Position numbers and translations under genes: made by a program. From an uncultured Acidobacteriota bacterium (lineage in GTDB: Bacteria; Acidobacteriota; Blastocatellia; RBC074), in NCBI GenBank assembly GCA_902825875.1, contig CADECP010000005.1:50168-114167 (forward strand): 64,000 bases of DNA, given 5' to 3'. This document shows, in pieces, positions 492 through 59,240 of the stretch. Under the pieces are notes generated by a model. That model did no database searches, had not been told where the DNA came from, and saw nothing but the letters and a program-made list of their open reading frames with translations. The stretch's first letter is position 1. Every line of letters starts with the position of its first letter.

Positions 492-1816
492 TGCGATTGC
501 TCCTGCAATTTCAATTCGACGGCGGCTTGCGAATCGCTTTTGACCAAGATTCGCACGCACAAATACGCCAGCGGATGCAGCACGCCCATCAACACCAGCA
601 GCGGCGTGTACGAATATTTATCAATCACCTGACCGGCAAAGGATTGAAACAGCGCGCCGCCTATGCCGCCGCCCATCGCCACAATGCCGTGAATGGTCGC
701 CACAATCGGGCGCGGAAAAATGTCCACAGTCAGCGTCACCAGATTGGTTTTCCACGCCGAATGCACTCCCAACACAAAGCTGATAATCGCCAACGCCACG
801 GGAATCGGTGGTCGCAAAACCAGCAACATCCCCAGCGGCATCATCAACGCGGTGACGATCATGACGGATTTGCGCGCGGCGACTGCGCCAATTTTTCTGG
901 CGATCAATCGCCCCGAATACCAACCGCCCGCCACTGAGCCGACATCGGCAATCAGATAAGGAATCCAAACCACGTAACTCATCCGCTGTTCCGTCATGCC
1001 TTCGCGTTCGGTCAGATACTTCGGCAGCCAGAACAGATAAAACCACCAGACCGGATCGGAGATGATGCGCGCCAGCAACAATCCCCAGGTTTGAGGCAAA
1101 CGGAAAAATGAAAGGAAAGCGGGACGGGGAGATTGAGGGACAGCGGGACTGAGGGAAGTTCGTTCCGTCTCTCCGTCTCCCCGTCTCTCCGTCTCTCCTT
1201 CCCGAATCAGCGCCAGTTCTTCAGCCGAAATGCGCGGATGTTTTTCCGGCAAGTGATAAAACCAGAACCACGCCGCCGCCCAAATCAAACCCAACGCGCC
1301 TGTGGAAACAAACGCCGATTGCCAGCCCCAACGGTCTGCCATCCACACGGCGATGAGCGGCGTGATAATCGCGCCTGTCACCGTTCCCGCCTGAACCCAA
1401 CCGTTGAGCGTGCCGCGATCTTTGGGTGGAAACCATTCCGCCGCCACTTTTTGCGCGCCGACGAAATTGGCTGATTCCGCCGCGCCAAGCAAAAACCGCA
1501 TGGCGCCGAAACCGAAAACAGAACCGACCGCCGCATGCAGCATCGCCGCGACTGACCACCAAACAGCCGCAACGCCGTAGATCAATTTCGTACCGTAACG
1601 ATCAATCAGCCAACCGGAGACGACGAACATGACTGTGTACGGAATCAGAAAAGCATTTGAGATCAGGCCGTAATCGCTGTTTGTCAGATGCAGTTCTTTG
1701 GTCAGACGCGGAGCCAGCGACGACAGCGTTTGGCGGTCAACGTAATTGATGACCGTGCCGAAAAAGACCAGCCCAGTGATCCACCAGCGCAAATTGGGAA
1801 TTGGCTTTTTCATCAT
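488..1816 (-). CDS. MFS transporter, hexuronate/sugar-acid (ExuT/DgoT-like anion:cation symporter) type
   Basis: ORF track 488..1846. Multi-TM with MFS signatures (GxLxDRxGxK: 'GWLIDRYGTK'). Start taken at the second Met pair (MMKKPIP) because that ATG overlaps the upstream stop as ATGA. Central cytoplasmic loop carries an unusual ETER/GDGETER insertion. Confidence 0.8.
   Translation of the reverse strand: MMKKPIPNLRWWITGLVFFGTVINYVDRQTLSSLAPRLTKELHLTNSDYGLISNAFLIPYTVMFVVSGWLIDRYGTKLIYGVAAVWWSVAAMLHAAVGSVFGFGAMRFLLGAAESANFVGAQKVAAEWFPPKDRGTLNGWVQAGTVTGAIITPLIAVWMADRWGWQSAFVSTGALGLIWAAAWFWFYHLPEKHPRISAEELALIREGETERRGDGETERTSLSPAVPQSPRPAFLSFFRLPQTWGLLLARIISDPVWWFYLFWLPKYLTEREGMTEQRMSYVVWIPYLIADVGSVAGGWYSGRLIARKIGAVAARKSVMIVTALMMPLGMLLVLRPPIPVALAIISFVLGVHSAWKTNLVTLTVDIFPRPIVATIHGIVAMGGGIGGALFQSFAGQVIDKYSYTPLLVLMGVLHPLAYLCVRILVKSDSQAAVELKLQEQSQ
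1121..1198. repeat. GA/TC-rich imperfect palindromic element lying in frame inside the MFS gene (encodes ...EGETERRGDGETERTSLSP...); related copy at 31557-31620
   Basis: Direct reading: 'gggactgagggaag...ccgtctctccgtctccccgtctctccgtctctcc'. Shares 'gactgaggga' and 'tctccgtctc' with the intergenic hairpin downstream of the PEGA gene. Confidence 0.5.
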
Positions 1817-5639: not shown

Positions 5640-5641
5640 AT

Positions 5642-5700
5642 AGTCCCAGCTTCAGCCGTAATGCTTCGATAATAAAGGCATTCCGGCTGAAGCTGGGACT
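5642..5700 (-). terminator. Perfect 17-bp inverted repeat hairpin between the TonB-receptor gene stop and the Tat-enolase start (terminator/attenuator-like)
   Basis: agtcccagcttcagccg ... cggctgaagctgggact. Loop itself contains aatgc/gcatt. Lies 6 nt after the receptor stop codon. Confidence 0.4.
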
Positions 5701-5706
5701 ACGAAC

Positions 5707-8700
5707 TTAGAAAATCAGCTTCAAGCCCAACTGCATCAAACGCGGATCGCGCGAACCGGTGATGCGTCCGAAAGCGTCGTTGTTATTCGTGCCGCCCGGC
5801 CCGGCACCGAACGAACCGTTCGGCGTGCCCAGGTTGACGTGATTCGGCGCGTTGAAGGCTTCGGCGCGGAATTGCAGCTTCAGCCGTTCGGTAATGGTGA
5901 AGTTCTTGAACACCGACAGGTCAATGATGATCGCGCCCGGATTGCGGAATTGGCTGATGGCGCGCGGCGTGTTGCCGAACACGTACAAAGCCGGATTCAC
6001 GAAGGCCGCCGGGTTGAACCATTGCACGCCGCGGTTTGGATTGGCATCGGTGAAACCGCTGGGCAATTCCAGACTGCCGATCCAGTCGGGACGATTTGCC
6101 AAACCGTTGTTCGCGCCGCGCACCGAAGTCGGCGTCCCGGCCACAATCGTCGTGATCGTGTTCAATTGCCAACCGCCAAGAACGTTGTTGGCCACTCCGT
6201 TTTTGAAATCGAAGCGTTTGCCCGCGCCGAAAGGCAGTTCGACCAAACCGCTGACCACCAAACGATGCGGCACGTTCGACGGGTCTTCCGAACGTTCGGC
6301 GCGACGATTGTACAAACCGTTCTGATAGCCGAAATCGTTGCCGCCTTCCGAACCTATGAAGTTCAATCCGTTGAAGATCGAATCGCTGATGAGTTTGGCG
6401 AAGGTGTATGAAGCCAGCACCGTGAAGCCTTTGGAAAAACGTTTTTCCGCCGACACCAGCATTGAGTGATAAATCGAATTGCCCGCGTGCGGCGCTTGGA
6501 CGGTGATGCCGCCGACATAAGGCAGCGGACGCAGCGCCTGAGCCTGTGTGATGGTCGCTCCGCCGAATGGGCCTGGGACTTTGCCCGCGAACGGATTCGG
6601 CACGTTGTTGGTCAGGCGTCCCGCCAAACCGAATTCACGAATCTTCGCCGGATCGGCTTGATTCAAATCGTAACTGCCGGACAGCAAGTGAGTGCCGTGA
6701 TTGGCCGAATAAGCGACTTCGACCAGAAAGCCTCCGCCGAGTTGTTGTTGCAAGGACAGATTCCATTGCTGCGACATCGGCGTGCGCGAAATTTGCTCTT
6801 TGAACGACGCGCTGGACGTGGCAAAAAAGTTCGGCCCTAAACGCGCGCCCAAGGGTTGATTCGGCGCGAAGGGAAAACCGTCCTTGAATTGAAATGCCGT
6901 CAGCAGGTTGTTGCCGTTCGGCGCAGGGTAAGCCGTCGTCGTTCCGGCAAAACCGTTCGTGCTTTCGTAATTGGCGTTCCAATAAGAAAACAGCGCCGAC
7001 ATAAAGATGCCGTAACCGCCGCGAACAACCGTTTGCTGATTGCCGCGCACATCCCACGAAAAACCCACGCGCGGCGCGAAGTCGTTTTTGTCGTCTTCGG
7101 AAAAGGTTCGCCCGTAATCAATGCAGGCGTATTGCGTCAAGCCTGGCAGACTGTTGGTCGGGTTCGTAGCGAAAGGATTGAACCTCGAAGTGCCGCAACG
7201 CCGTTCGTAAGGCTGTTGCTGGTAATCGTAACGCAATCCCAAACTCAGACTCAGGCGGCGGCGAATCTTCCATTCATCGTTGACGTAAAAACCGTAAGAC
7301 TTGCCGACTTCGGATTCGCCCAGATGCGTCGTCACGCTGGCGCTGCCGACCGCGCCGAGCAAAAACGTGGCGAATTGATTGCCGGTGTTGATGCGGTTGC
7401 CGGCGATGGGCGCGGCGTTGTCGGTCAAGGTTGTCGGGAATTGGAAATCGCCGGACGGCGAGCTTTTTTGCAGGTTGTTGGCCTGTGTCAGTCGCAACTC
7501 CGTGCCGAATTTGACTGTGTGATTGCCTTTCAACCAGGTCAGCGAATCAAACAATTGCCAGACCGAGCCGCCGCGTTTGCCCACAGTGCCGGTGTTGAAT
7601 CCGGGCAAACCGTTGTTCGGACGCGGCAACACATCCGGCGGAACGATTGACGGCAAACCCAATTGCGACGGCAGGTTCTGATCGGCGCTCGCCACCTTGA
7701 ATTCAAAAATCTGCCGCGCCACGCCGATGCGGAATTCGTGAATCAGGTTCGGCGTGAAGTTGTGAATGTCGCTCAGCACGACGTTGTGTCCGCGAAACGG
7801 GTCGGTGCGTTGGCGCACAATCGGATCGGGATAAAGATTCGCCGTGCCGTTGTCGGTGAACTGTTTGTAAAAGGTGTAGCGCGCCGTGAAGTTGTTCTTT
7901 TCAGAAAAGCGATGATCCACGCGCGAAGTGTGATTGGTCAGCGTGCGTTTGTTGCTGACCGCGCCGAAGAAATTGTTCAGATTGGTGAAGGCGTTGTCCG
8001 CCGTGCGGTTGGGCAGCGGATAAAACCGCAGGAAGTTTTTCGAGACCGCATCAATCCGATTGGCCGGAATGATGTTGCCGGGAAACGGGTCGCGCAGAAA
8101 GCCTTGCCCGTTCGGATTCGGGCGAGTGGTCGCCGGATCGTAAATGATGATCGGTTTGCCTGTGGCGTCGGCCAGCTTGGAAAAATCGCCGTTGCGGAAA
8201 GCTTCGGTCGGCAAGGTGTAAAAGCCCGAAGCGTTGGTTACAAACTGATAGCCTTCATAGTTGTAAAAGAAAAAGCTCTTGTCGCGTCCGTCGTAACCCA
8301 GCGGCCCGAAGACTTTGCCGGGCAAACGGATCGGCCCGCCAATCGAACCGCCGTATTGGTTGTAACGCAGCGGCTGTTTCGGACGCCGCGCGCGATTGTT
8401 GGCCCAAGAATTGGCGTCGAGCGAATTGTTGCGGAAAAACTCGTAAACCGTGCCGTGATAAGCGTTCGTGCCGGCTTTGGTCACCAGGTTCACCACGCCG
8501 CCGAGCGTGAAACCGTATTCCGCCGACATGGTGTTGGTCTGGACTTTGAATTCCTGCACCGAATCCACGTTCGGATTGATGTTTGCGTCCGGCAGATAAG
8601 CATTGACGCTGCTCAAACCGTCCACAACCAGATTGTTGGTGGCGAACGGCGAGCCGTTGATGCGAATGAACGAGACCTGCGTGCCGCGATCCGCAAAGCC

Positions 8701-18146: not shown

Positions 18147-18223
18147 ATCCACGAAGAAACACGAAGATGACACGAAGAAAACCAAAGTTTTTTCTTCGTG
18201 AAACTTCGTGTTCCTTCGTGGAT
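18147..18223. repeat. CACGAAG-decamer palindromic repeat forming nested hairpins between convergent genes (bidirectional terminator-like)
   Basis: atccacgaagaaacacgaagatgacacgaagaaaaccaaagttttttcttcgtgaaacttcgtgttccttcgtggat. Same family as 55018-55186. Confidence 0.6.
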
Positions 18224-31556: not shown

Positions 31557-31620
31557 AAAGACGGAGAGACTGAGGGATGGGGTGTTTTCTCTCCGTCTCT
31601 CATTCTCCCTGTCTCTCAAA
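31557..31620. repeat. GA/TC-rich hairpin (gacggagaga...tctctccgtc) between convergent genes; terminator-like; related to 1121-1198
   Basis: Seen directly. Shares 'gactgaggga' and 'tctccgtctc' with the element inside the MFS gene. Confidence 0.5.
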
Positions 31621-32296
31621 TCCCGCCATCGTCCCGCCTCAATTGATTGACCAGCAAATGCGCCTGTCGAGTCGGTTCCGGTTGGCGATATTTCGTCACT
31701 GACCTCATTGCCAGATCAACCGCCGTATTCAAATCCATCAAGTGCCCGGCGGAGATGTACACCGGCGCAACTTTCTTTTTCGTCCTGAGCGCAACGCCGA
31801 CAATTTCCTGTTTGTCTATCAATGGCGAACTGCTTCCGGCATCCAAATCAAGCTTGCCGTGCCGCCCAACCAGAATGCTTTTCGCACAACCAAGCGTTGG
31901 CAAATCCAGAATCAATCCGATGTGACAGGCGATGCCAAACCGTCGCGGATGAGCCAGCCCTTGTCCGTCCAGCATCAAGGCATCCGGCTTGGTCGTCAGC
32001 TTTTCCCAGCATTCCAAAAACGAAGGCGTTTCGCGGAAACTCAACAAGCCCGGCACGTACGGAAACTTTGCCGTGCTGCGAACGCTGGAGGTTTCGACAA
32101 TCTGCAAATCAGGCAGGCTGAGCACAACAATGCCGGAGTAGATCACGTCCGAAAATCGGTTGAAGGAAATGTCTGCTCCGGCAATGGTGTGGATTTCGTG
32201 GTTGGGCGGTTCGATGCGAACCAGCGAGCGCCATTCTTTCTGGGCTTCGATGGCTTCTTTAGGCGTCAGATTCCAATTAGTAAGCGAATAAGGCAT
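31616..32296 (-). CDS. nfi: Endonuclease V (deoxyinosine 3' endonuclease)
   Basis: AGADISF, YVPGLLSFRE, DGQGLAHPRRFGIACHIGLILDLPTLGCAKS match Nfi catalytic motifs. Confidence 0.85.
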   Translation of the reverse strand: MPYSLTNWNLTPKEAIEAQKEWRSLVRIEPPNHEIHTIAGADISFNRFSDVIYSGIVVLSLPDLQIVETSSVRSTAKFPYVPGLLSFRETPSFLECWEKLTTKPDALMLDGQGLAHPRRFGIACHIGLILDLPTLGCAKSILVGRHGKLDLDAGSSSPLIDKQEIVGVALRTKKKVAPVYISAGHLMDLNTAVDLAMRSVTKYRQPEPTRQAHLLVNQLRRDDGGI

Positions 32297-32318
32297 AGAC
32301 AGGATTTACAAGATTCAC
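32295..32318. repeat. Left arm of inverted repeat 'tagacaggatttacaagatt' flanking the GxxExxY gene
   Basis: 21-nt perfect match to the reverse complement of 32734-32757. Also present at 55059-55078. Confidence 0.7.
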
Positions 32319-32323
32319 AGGAT

Positions 32324-32713
32324 TCAAGAAGAAATTGTGCCAGATGTCTTGTAGATGCGATATTTGCGCCTGACTTGAACCGACGAACCGAAGTTGAGCA
32401 ACAACCCAGAATTATTTCCGGTCGCAACTAAATAGTTGACCAACTGAACCTCGTGATCTTTGCTCAACGACTGAACCGCTTTCAATTCAACAATGATTTG
32501 GTTTTCAACCCACAAGTCAGCGAAATACTCACCTATCGCCCGTCCGTCATAAAAAACAGTTATGGGAACTTCAACCATAGCTGACAGCCCAACCTTTTCA
32601 AGCTCAATACACAAGGCTTTTTTGTAAATCTTTTCGAGAAAACCAGATCCAAGGGTGTTATGAACTTTGTAAGCACAGCCAATGATGATTTCAGTCAATT
32701 CGTCATCGCTCAT
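32324..32713 (-). CDS. GxxExxY-family protein (PD-(D/E)XK-like small protein)
   Basis: 129 aa. GFLEKIY = GxxExxY motif. Family size and pattern as recalled for TIGR04256-like proteins. Gene lies exactly inside a hairpin-repeat loop. Confidence 0.75.
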   Translation of the reverse strand: MSDDELTEIIIGCAYKVHNTLGSGFLEKIYKKALCIELEKVGLSAMVEVPITVFYDGRAIGEYFADLWVENQIIVELKAVQSLSKDHEVQLVNYLVATGNNSGLLLNFGSSVQVRRKYRIYKTSGTISS

Positions 32714-32733
32714 AGACTACACACCATCCTGTT

Positions 32734-32757
32734 AATCTTGTAAATCCTGTCTATTAT
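32734..32757. repeat. Right arm of inverted repeat (aatcttgtaaatcctgtcta) flanking the GxxExxY gene
   Basis: Reverse complement of the left arm. Starts 21 nt past the GxxExxY start codon (32713). Confidence 0.7.
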
Positions 32758-32767
32758 CTGTGTTGCT

Positions 32768-33199
32768 TTAACCAGCGATTTCTACCAACTTCAAATCGAA
32801 ATGCAGTTCTTCGCCCGCCAATGGATGATTGGCATCCAGCGTGACGGTGGTTTCGGTCAGTTCGGTGATGACCAGCGGGATGGCTCCCTGCGGAGTTTGC
32901 ATTTCAATCGCCATGCCGAGTTCCGGTTCGACATCGCCGATGTTGAATTGTTCGCGGCTGATGGTTTGCATCAGTTCTTCCATTCGCTGGCCGTAGGCTT
33001 GATCGGCGGGAATGACGACATTCTTGGTTTCGCCGATTTGCATTCCAACCAACGCGGCGTCAAAACCCGGTATAACGTGACCGGCTCCGACCGTGAATCC
33101 CAACGGGTCGCCGCCTTCCGAAGAATCGAAAACCTGGCCGTCATCGAACTTACCTGTGTAATGCACCTTCACGGCGTCGCCGTTTTTCACTATAGACAT
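32768..33199 (-). CDS. slyD: FKBP-type peptidyl-prolyl cis-trans isomerase SlyD-like (FKBP with IF insertion domain)
   Basis: VKVHYTGKFDDGQVFDSS..GDPLGFTVGAGHVIPGFDAALVGMQIGE FKBP core plus insert-in-flap domain. 143 aa. Confidence 0.85.
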   Translation of the reverse strand: MSIVKNGDAVKVHYTGKFDDGQVFDSSEGGDPLGFTVGAGHVIPGFDAALVGMQIGETKNVVIPADQAYGQRMEELMQTISREQFNIGDVEPELGMAIEMQTPQGAIPLVITELTETTVTLDANHPLAGEELHFDLKLVEIAG

Positions 33200-55017: not shown

Positions 55018-55186
55018 TCCACGAAGTCACACGAAGCAGCACGAAGAAGAAAAGACCTTAGACAGGATTTACAAGATTGGACAGGATTGACTGGCAGTCT
55101 GTTGAATCAGGCTTTCATCCTGTTGCATCCTGTAAATCCTGTCTAAAAATTTCTTCTCTTCGTGTCCTCTTCGTGTGTCTTCGTGG
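55018..55186. repeat. Composite nested palindrome: outer CACGAAG-decamer arms enclosing an 'empty' copy of the tagacaggatttacaagatt hairpin
   Basis: Outer arms ccacgaagtcacacgaagcagcacgaagaag... / ...cttctcttcgtgtcctcttcgtgtgtcttcgtgg. Inner arms tagacaggatttacaagatt / atcctgtaaatcctgtcta. Confidence 0.6.
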
Positions 55187-55194
55187 AAGATAAG

Positions 55195-56871: not shown

Positions 56872-56940
56872 GCGCGTTTGTAGTTCCGCCTTTAGGCGGC
56901 TGAAGTTACGCAGCCGCCTAAAGGCGGAACTACAAACGCG
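56872..56940. repeat. Perfect about 30-bp-stem palindrome (gcgtttgtagttccgcctttaggcggctg / loop aagttacg / reverse complement); each arm also self-palindromic
   Basis: Seen directly. Lies 2 nt after the crotonase stop and 22 nt before the MBL start. No T-run. Confidence 0.55.
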
Positions 56941-59151: not shown

Positions 59152-59240
59152 ACCCGGTACAGAACCGGGAGCGGTAGCGACTGGGTGATTTCGTGAAGCA
59201 CTCACCTAGTCGCTACTGCTCCCGGTTCCATACCAGTAAC
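59152..59240. repeat. REP-like palindromic element (gaaccgggagcggtagcgactgggtga / tcacctagtcgctactgctcccggttc) between hisS and aspS
   Basis: 27-nt arms with 2 mismatches, loop tttcgtgaagcac. Core also found inside the ADH gene (33961-33985). Confidence 0.6.

Follow-up and report, generated by a model that had tools for sequence, protein, structure and literature searches.

How does a small gene come to lie exactly between the two arms of an inverted repeat? The question is raised by a gene of the GxxExxY family in a stretch of 64,000 nucleotides, here called the window, from an uncultured Acidobacteriota bacterium (Blastocatellia, RBC074; GenBank assembly GCA_902825875.1, contig CADECP010000005.1, positions 50,168 to 114,167). 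An earlier note, made from the letters of the window, had described the gene as cargo inserted into, or carried by, a stem-loop repeat. We find that the association of gene and repeat is not coincidental; the gene may have been inserted or may be carried. We rate the chances as evenly balanced that the gene and its two heptamer arms form a compact, seemingly selfish cassette of ~460 bp that is co-inherited and spreads horizontally, and that gene-less hairpins built from the same ACAGGAT heptamers belong to the same family. Those hairpins, including one at 55059-55145 of the window, would then be the cassette's non-autonomous relatives or its target sites. The strongest features, none of them in the earlier note, are that the arms are identical across many species, that arm family and protein clade correspond, and that the whole resembles the intervening sequences of 23S rRNA.

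The gene is indeed bracketed by an inverted repeat (Table 1). The earlier note had given a perfect 21-nt repeat, but the arms extend to 29 nt with one mismatch (97% complementary) and leave 402 nt between them. The left arm does end at the stop codon, as had been stated; the extended right arm begins 12 nt beyond the start codon rather than 21. Each arm holds three heptamers, which in the upstream arm read ACAGGAT or ACAAGAT and recur with a 9-nt period. The 20-mer TAGACAGGATTTACAAGATT is found at 32296-32315 (+) and 32734-32753 (-), again at 55059-55078 (+), and with two mismatches at 55126-55145 (-); 100 dinucleotide-preserving shuffles of the window gave no match to it. FKBP, GxxExxY and nfi all lie on the minus strand, and the cassette occupies the whole gap between the two host genes: the FKBP stop codon is 13 nt ahead of the upstream arm, and the downstream arm supplies the A of the nfi start codon (ATG, 32296-32294, minus strand). 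This is the sole GxxExxY gene within the window. A promoter and terminator scan gave no promoter- or terminator-like site at the arms or inside the cassette, and we therefore rejected an intrinsic terminator; the stems are AT-rich and ~29 bp long, with no GC-rich stem followed by a T-tract.

The open reading frame (ORF) between the arms matches PF13366 (PDDEXK_3) with 140.2 bits against a cut-off of 22 and TIGR04256 (GxxExxY) with 136.8 bits against a cut-off of 35, and the family motif is present as G24-F-L-E27-K-I-Y30. The active-site residues of the PD-(D/E)XK fold are intact (E27, D66, E76-L-K78 and Q90-x-x-x-Y94); G24, E27, Y30, D66, K78, Q90 and Y94 are invariant in 26 aligned homologues, and E76 is kept in at least 90%. 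An AlphaFold2 (AF2) model is confident (predicted local distance difference test score, pLDDT, 90.5), and a Foldseek search with it returned Cas4 SSO0001 (E 1e-4), lambda exonuclease, MGME1 and Hjc resolvase. The fold that the earlier note had assigned is thus borne out by active site, model and structural neighbours, and the model indicates that the protein is a metal-dependent nuclease core of the RecB/Cas4 type. PADLOC gave a weak Cas4-like match alone and assigned the protein to no known defence system. The PHROGs phage families held no match, and a sequence search of solved structures found no relative. A protein search over a word-limited candidate set returned 4741 GxxExxY relatives, and there was almost nothing on the family in the full-text literature that we searched.

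Gene and arms are both under purifying selection across species. Against its counterparts at the same site in two other genomes (loci L021 and L139), the window gene has a ratio of nonsynonymous to synonymous substitution rates (dN/dS) of 0.03-0.12, with synonymous sites saturated (proportion of synonymous differences, pS, 0.60-0.72); selection on it is strong. Among the same three loci, the upstream arms agree at 28 of 29 nt and the downstream arms at 29 of 30, and the region after the GxxExxY stop codon is not kept. Synonymous divergence (dS) of the gene is 1.2-2.3, compared with 0.6-0.9 for the flanking FKBP and nfi genes of the same genome pairs, all values near saturation. This difference hints that the elements are older than their host loci, or have been exchanged independently of them.

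The earlier note had proposed looking for further copies of the repeat, comparing filled with empty sites, and surveying other GxxExxY genes. An exact scan for the 20-mer, with one genome per species and assemblies counted by prefix, found at least 120 stretches in ~80 species genomes at least, many of the copies being empty; several genomes hold 10 or more. A partner arm lies within 3 kb for 89 of 140 arms, and nearly all of these pairs are hairpins of 50-150 nt. A frequent form in Pyrinomonadaceae is a 68-nt near-perfect palindrome with the centre ACATGT. About half of the 20-mer stretches listed are labelled Blastocatellia, Pyrinomonadaceae or other Acidobacteriota, in keeping with the source of the window, homologues of whose proteins carry the name Blastocatellia. 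The further labels are Lewinellaceae, Saprospiraceae, Bacteroidales, Thermoguttaceae, Pirellulales, Verrucomicrobiota, Kiritimatiellia, Anaerolineae, Caldilineaceae, Sumerlaeota, Nitrospinaceae and several Proteobacteria, and some of these differently labelled loci are on contigs of 0.2-2.5 Mb. Taxon labels are the submitters' own and some are wrong; we did not rely on the labels "Heliomicrobium" and "Streptomycetaceae". The nfi gene of L140 (CAZXZU010000095.1, in the "uncultured Heliomicrobium" assembly CAZXZU01) is 85% identical to that of the Acidobacteriota window, which marks the metagenome-assembled genomes (MAGs) of this name (L140, L042, L096-L098) as evidently mislabelled. The "Streptomycetaceae"-labelled bins (L023, L051, L067, L110, L115) are probably mislabelled too.

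We ran a hidden Markov model built from 120 homologues on the 120 20-mer loci and found seven GxxExxY ORFs, five of them within ~250 nt of the 20-mer. In L021, L020, L049 and L093, reading of the flanks showed the gene to be nested, with an ACAGGAT arm upstream and an ATCCTGT arm downstream. Two sites are filled in three genomes each: the FKBP-nfi junction (window, L021, L139) and the junction between YceI and an aldehyde dehydrogenase (L020, L049, L149). In L093 (labelled Pirellulales, Planctomycetota) the gene is nested in ACAGGAT arms, and in L018 (labelled Thermoguttaceae, Planctomycetota) and L151 a complete hairpin stands on either side of it. GxxExxY loci were also sampled independently of the repeat, using records of plasmids and chromids, two viral contigs and, for 120 homologue clusters, the C-terminal tails. 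Six of ten such genes are nested in an inverted repeat, three have heptamers on one side or as a direct repeat, and one (L143) is unclear (Table 1). For two ~130-nt segments, we estimate that a perfect 11-nt inverted repeat would arise by chance with a probability of ~0.004. Heptamer-repeat hairpins therefore flank GxxExxY genes in other genomes with other arm sequences, and the heptamers share the common form CRCRRAK. In at least 74 of the 120 homologue clusters, the C-terminal tail translates an arm: xSIL followed by a stop, from TCAATCCTGTAA; NPVNLVNPV; or, from the opposite arm, RQDLQD. Among clusters "silent" in this respect for which DNA was read (P0001, P0003, P0007, P0028, P0035), arms were present in five of five. 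The ORFs that run into the downstream arm include those of L020, L049 and L093, and the 9-nt period preserves the reading frame. The tail appears dispensable, because the L021 ORF ends 14 codons before that of the window.

Arm and protein go together. A tree of 17 proteins unites all the ACAGGAT-flanked ones in a single clade, including two labelled Planctomycetota that are 52-57% identical to the window protein; the CACAGAG-flanked pair groups together, as does the CGCxAAG-flanked pair (Sphingomonas and the Chloroflexi-labelled L102). Judged from this tree, arm family follows protein clade across differently labelled phyla. The arrangement is also polar: the purine-rich heptamer arm lies upstream of the gene at ~8 of 8 independent nested sites, which is not expected if genes land randomly in symmetric palindromes. 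We found no description of a link between GxxExxY genes and heptamer hairpins in the full-text literature, a set without most subscription journals. The repeat sequences themselves were not found in the full-text papers searched, where the matches were primer coincidences.

Two observations concern arms in other settings. In L116, a Planctomycetota MAG, the neighbour of an ACAGGAT arm is a DUF5618 gene (124 aa; PF18498, 122 bits). With the locus reverse-complemented, the arm is at position 6577 and the gene ~107-481 nt inward from it. The same hairpins may be used by other small genes. DUF5618 aside, small ORFs beside solitary arms were mostly ordinary neighbour genes or spurious ORFs. In L050 (labelled Bacteroidales UBA5281), positions 7300-8000 hold head-to-tail units of ~31 nt (TAGACAGGATTTACAGGGTTTACAGGTTTTT) downstream of a partial GxxExxY ORF, the arm sequence being amplified there as a tandem repeat and not as a palindrome.

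The FKBP-nfi junction can be compared across genomes, and we fetched the corresponding loci through their endonuclease V orthologues. Orthologous sites are bare or differently occupied (Table 1). In nfi and FKBP trees, the window groups with L133, L137 and L138, all of which hold a gene-less hairpin of period-7 AGGATTT/AGGAAT heptamers; L021 and L139, which carry the GxxExxY gene, fall outside that clade. Because the closest relatives hold a different hairpin there, the junction is a repeated landing site for hairpin elements. Relative to L137, the closest relative, similarity stops exactly at the FKBP stop codon and restarts at nfi codon 8. GxxExxY identities at this site (85% and 76%) roughly track those of the host genes. 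The tree positions, the break relative to L137 and the high dS together require either repeated loss and replacement or repeated acquisition at one junction; in both cases, hairpin elements insert there and the junction turns over. We note that in the spacer of L135 the ACAGGAT element's terminal hexamers make up a mini-palindrome, which provides the stop codon of FKBP and directly adjoins the ATG of nfi. It could be an excision scar, a proto-site or a chance occurrence.

Table 1. Features of the window, states of the FKBP-nfi junction, and GxxExxY genes sampled independently of the repeat (positions are those of the locus named).
Locus	Feature	Position	Strand	Detail
Window	Upstream arm (gene orientation)	32726..32754	-	reads ATAGACAGGATTTACAAGATTAACAGGAT on minus strand
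Window	Spacer, upstream arm to ATG	32714..32725	-	12 nt; not kept among orthologous elements (alignment)
Window	GxxExxY gene	32324..32713	-	129 aa; predicted PD-(D/E)XK nuclease, RecB/Cas4-like type; PF13366, TIGR04256
Window	Downstream arm	32295..32323	-	reads ATCCTGTGAATCTTGTAAATCCTGTCTAT on minus strand; abuts GxxExxY stop codon TGA (32324-32326)
Window	Endonuclease V (nfi), host gene directly downstream of cassette	31616..32296	-	PF04493
Window	FKBP-type (SlyD-like) peptidyl-prolyl isomerase, host gene directly upstream	32768..33199	-	PF00254
Window	Gene-less ACAGGAT-family hairpin	55059..55145		87 nt; RNA fold -40 to -43 kcal/mol, z ~-7.6 on either strand
Window	Composite: outer palindrome, three CACGAAG / three CTTCGTG, around ACAGGAT hairpin	55018..55187		repeat search
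Window	Stand-alone CACGAAG hairpin	18147..18223		77 nt, 16-nt loop; RNA fold -42 to -47 kcal/mol, z -9 to -11
L134, L141, L136	Bare junction			7-13 nt; nfi 81-86% identical to window
L135	Junction spacer	1488-1503		13 nt reading TAGACAtacccTGTCTA-TG; nfi 83%
L137, L133, L138	Junction with different gene-less hairpin	L137 1097-1200; L133 1407-1500; L138 1107-1200		AGGATTT-type heptamers, ~94-104 nt; nfi 90-95%
Window, L021, L139	Junction with ACAGGAT arms and GxxExxY			nfi 100%, 88%, 86%
L148	Bacteroides finegoldii			three CACAGAG / three CTCTGTG, 30-nt inverted repeat
L147	Bernardetia			CACAGAG, 28-nt inverted repeat
L145	Treponema saccharophilum			ACACGGATTCG, CACGGAT type, 11-nt inverted repeat
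L131	Viral contig			CACGGAT inverted repeat
L132	Viral contig			44-nt inverted repeat, AT-rich
L102	Labelled Chloroflexi			CGCAAAG hairpin arrays
L146	Sphingomonas			three CGCGAAG, upstream side only
L144	Gemmatirosa			CGCGGAT hairpin, downstream side only
L142	Fusobacteria bacterium ZRK30			25-nt direct repeat containing ATCCGTG
L143	Persicobacter			AATCC-rich flanks, no clear pattern

We examined operon context for hints at the RNA level. In seven of seven isolate records, the genes on both sides of GxxExxY share its strand and direction, and the gaps are short. One of them, L146 (Sphingomonas parapaucimobilis YK209, NZ_CP155749.1, 482837-483265), has the gene between fabD and fabG of the fatty-acid synthesis operon, with its CGCGAAG heptamers directly ahead of the GxxExxY ATG and a stop codon 2 nt before the fabG start. 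Sixty hairpins had both neighbours called as ORFs: 37 lie between co-directional, 19 between convergent and 4 between divergent genes. Among the co-directional ones, the transcribed strand folds more stably in 21 cases against 9, with 7 ties (estimated binomial p ~0.02), on crude ORF-based gene calls.

By analogy, the cassette's nearest counterpart in operation would be an intervening sequence at the RNA level, and a REPIN-RAYT system or a homing endonuclease gene at the DNA level. The intervening sequence in the 23S rRNA of Coxiella has been described as selfish; it is 428 nt long, has a 28-bp terminal inverted-repeat stem that is cut by RNase III, and carries three tandem GACAGAT heptamers ahead of a small ORF (PMC4990558). 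Like the ORF-containing intervening sequences of Coxiella burnetii and Leptospira, the cassette measures a few hundred nt (~460 against 428 in Coxiella) and has a terminal inverted-repeat stem of about the same length (~28 bp there; 29 nt, 97% here) around one small ORF, preceded by tandem purine-rich heptamers, (G)ACAGGAT in place of GACAGAT. From its context it would also be part of a host transcript, and both have a patchy distribution and unexplained mobility. In contrast to those sequences, the cassette lies between protein-coding genes and not in helix 25 or 45 of 23S rRNA, encodes a PD-(D/E)XK nuclease where they encode the S23p four-helix bundle protein, and has many dispersed gene-less hairpin relatives. 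RNase III cutting is a Coxiella feature and may or may not extend to the cassette, whose stem is predicted to be stable. Being outside rRNA and having no S23p, the cassette is not itself an intervening sequence.

Repetitive extragenic palindromic (REP) elements, their hairpin-forming doublets (REPINs) and the associated RAYT gene were reportedly described by Nunvar et al. in 2010 and by Bertels & Rainey in 2011, and REP families are generally species- or genus-specific. Shared with that system are the dispersal of short extragenic palindromes in tens of copies, the flanking of a small enzyme gene by cognate palindromes (L151 and L018 have a whole hairpin on each side), the correspondence of repeat family and enzyme clade, the lack of target-site duplications and the rarity between divergent genes. 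Unlike RAYT, a Y1/HUH transposase of the IS200/IS605-like kind, the enzyme here is a predicted PD-(D/E)XK nuclease with PF13366 as its sole Pfam match. The arms are heptamer arrays and not a single REP with a 5' GTAG, the GxxExxY gene is often multi-copy and often inside one split hairpin, and genomes with labels from many phyla share the exact 20-mer arm. REPIN-RAYT membership is ruled out by the lack of a Y1 transposase.

Homing endonuclease genes, which include that of the PD-(D/E)XK enzyme I-Ssp6803I, offer a second DNA-level parallel. Here too a small nuclease ORF is lodged in host-neutral sequence, its presence varies at one site among relatives, and the flank diverges at the junction (nfi codons 1-7) in a way compatible with co-conversion. 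The hairpin, however, takes the place of a self-splicing intron or intein, and gene-less hairpins stand at many non-homologous sites. Miniature inverted-repeat transposable elements (MITEs) with an autonomous parent likewise have terminal inverted repeats with sub-terminal motifs and many short gene-less copies beside few gene-bearing ones. The cassette differs from them in that 51 hairpins show no target-site duplication, there is no DDE transposase, and the loops of empty copies hold no significant remnant of the ORF ends; the first two rule out a MITE or other terminal-inverted-repeat transposon. The short tandemly repeated repetitive (STRR) heptamers of cyanobacteria, said to have been described by Mazel et al. 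in 1990, form tandem arrays. We know of no STRR that makes a gene-enclosing palindrome or is linked to a nuclease. As intergenic tandem heptamer arrays they resemble the elements here, the hairpin of L133, L137 and L138 (AGGATTT-type, period 7) being the closest. An integron cassette was rejected because a single gene among housekeeping genes (FKBP, nfi, ADH, PEGA) makes no array and no integrase was called in the flanks; attC core sites were not searched.

These parallels suggest how a spreading cassette might work. Having no promoter of its own, it would be transcribed by read-through from the co-oriented upstream gene. In the transcript, pairing of the arms would give an AU-rich stem of 29 bp, a substrate of the RNase III type, and may make insertion tolerable within an operon, as for the 23S rRNA intervening sequences. 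At the DNA level, the nuclease may recognise and cut the heptamer array or hairpin cognate to it; repair by the host, using the arms as homology, would then copy the gene into cognate hairpins. Alternatively, the nuclease may disperse or maintain the hairpins in the fashion of a RAYT acting on REPINs.

Several points weigh against such a cassette. No transposition or homing event was directly observed, and the joining of DNA strands is beyond a PD-(D/E)XK nuclease by itself. Filled hairpins are far fewer than empty ones, and the hairpins may therefore spread on their own. Since the intervening-sequence precedent carries a different ORF, heptamer hairpins are not bound to a single protein family. 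The exact 20-mer is absent from 2.9 million viral contigs, so that no vector is evident, and viral contigs held two GxxExxY relatives only. The flanks of the 51 hairpins show no consistent direct repeat and tend to prolong the palindrome. When loops of empty copies were compared with the 5' end of the ORF, one of seven gave p ~0.04, uncorrected; the ORF ends are not detectably retained there. Host GC content could account for part of the match of arm and clade, several taxon labels cannot be relied on, the strand asymmetry in folding depends on the crude gene calls, and the window's own empty copy is an exception to it, its non-transcribed strand folding slightly better.

The hairpins and the gene might instead have separate histories. 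The heptamer hairpins would then be an independent REP-like family, selfish or useful to the host as RNA and mobilised by something else, and the GxxExxY genes unrelated passengers, for example repair or defence nucleases, that gather in or beside hairpins, perhaps because landing in a loop does no harm or because recombination is concentrated at hairpins. We take this possibility, the main rival, seriously without favouring it. The vast excess of empty hairpins, the second, gene-less family settled at the FKBP-nfi junction in the closest relatives, and the nesting of hairpin in hairpin without any gene all fit it, as do the similar heptamers around a different ORF in intervening sequences, the DUF5618 gene adjoining an ACAGGAT arm and the one-sided arms or direct repeats of L142, L143, L144 and L146. 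Unrelated passengers, however, would not lead one to expect protein clade and arm family to correspond across differently labelled phyla, nor the polar orientation of gene to arm, nor flanking that is near-universal in the ACAGGAT clade, and no alternative mobilising gene was seen beside the hairpins.

A reading that dispenses with mobility seems improbable to us. In it, the arms act in cis as RNA signals that govern processing, stability or translation, the nuclease gene benefits the host, is inherited vertically and is lost repeatedly, and the empty hairpins are generic RNA elements with the same motif, such as 3'-end stabilisers or RNase III sites. It fits the phylogeny poorly: the window's three clade-mates have a different hairpin and no gene, whereas more distant relatives have the gene; the dS of the gene exceeds that of its flanks; the identical 20-mer recurs in genomes with labels from many phyla; insertions interrupt conserved operons, for example fabD-fabG; and the family is patchy with many paralogues. 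It does accommodate the co-directional setting without a promoter, the great stability of the hairpins, their scarcity in divergent intergenic regions and fold bias toward the transcribed strand, the purifying selection on gene and arms across species, and the GxxExxY identities that roughly track the host genes. Mere coincidence, an ordinary small gene beside a terminator-like palindrome, could appeal to the a priori frequency of intergenic hairpins and to the several other palindromes of the source genome, and to nothing else. Coincidence is refuted because the arrangement turns up again at independent loci and in further genomes; in addition, shuffling gives an expectation of zero for the 20-mer, and no GC-rich stem with T-tract is present in the element. 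We give it almost no credence. The earlier note had allowed for a chance insertion next to a terminator, which fails because other GxxExxY genes are hairpin-flanked as well.

Returning to the spreading cassette, a wider proposal can be made, which we regard as tentative and rather unlikely as a whole. GxxExxY proteins would be the mobility or maintenance nucleases of a multi-phylum superfamily of heptamer palindromes, with the 23S intervening sequences as its rRNA branch, and a unit of ~0.45 kb would spread by nuclease-triggered copying into cognate hairpins. If so, this nuclease-plus-arms unit would rank among the smallest autonomous prokaryotic mobile elements, and the 50-150-nt hairpins would be its REPIN- or MITE-like derivatives or its target sites. 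Should the nuclease act on the hairpin, the result would be a minimal mobile element run by a PD-(D/E)XK enzyme without transposase or intron, and an explanation for intergenic palindromes in Acidobacteriota, Bacteroidota, Planctomycetota, Verrucomicrobiota and others. A very large family without known function (PF13366/TIGR04256) gains a testable role, and is tied to a specific conserved DNA or RNA partner, the CRCRRAK-type heptamer palindromes. These share their architecture with rRNA intervening sequences, the origin and mobility of which have been open questions since about 1990. Cultured carriers include Bacteroides finegoldii, Sphingomonas parapaucimobilis, Bernardetia and Treponema saccharophilum.

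The window also holds gene-less palindromes. The earlier note had placed an empty copy of the cassette's hairpin inside a CACGAAG palindrome, and this is what we find; other Acidobacteriota (L038, L057, L078, L096) have hairpins of the subfamily to which this copy belongs, 85-100 nt long. A second Acidobacteriota genome (L029, L036, L057) has the same composite, with CACGAAG outside and ACAGGAT inside, and so do L096 and L098, which bear the unreliable "Heliomicrobium" label. In L015 (labelled Lewinellaceae) and L114 (labelled Saprospiraceae) the outer arms are CACGGAG. The CACGAAG family has a 10-nt period, and in the window one copy stands alone and one encloses the ACAGGAT hairpin. The window's heptamer hairpins give very stable RNA folds on either strand (z -7.5 to -11). 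A search of the whole window with Rfam 15 at gathering score found tRNA alone and no rRNA, and both hairpins, searched at E up to 10, gave spurious matches to miRNA precursors or long hairpins (for example MIR8562, 34 bits against a gathering score of 211).

Three more long intergenic palindromes of unrelated sequence lie at 56873-56940, 59156-59234 and 5641-5701, with arms of 30 nt (perfect, containing GTAGTTCCGCC), 33 nt (88%) and 24 nt (96%). Several palindrome families are abundant in the source genome. At 49841-50119, where Rfam at gathering score found nothing, a perfect 18-nt inverted repeat (TCACGAGTTTGGACAAAA and its complement) surrounds 243 nt and holds a second hairpin at 49934-49996.

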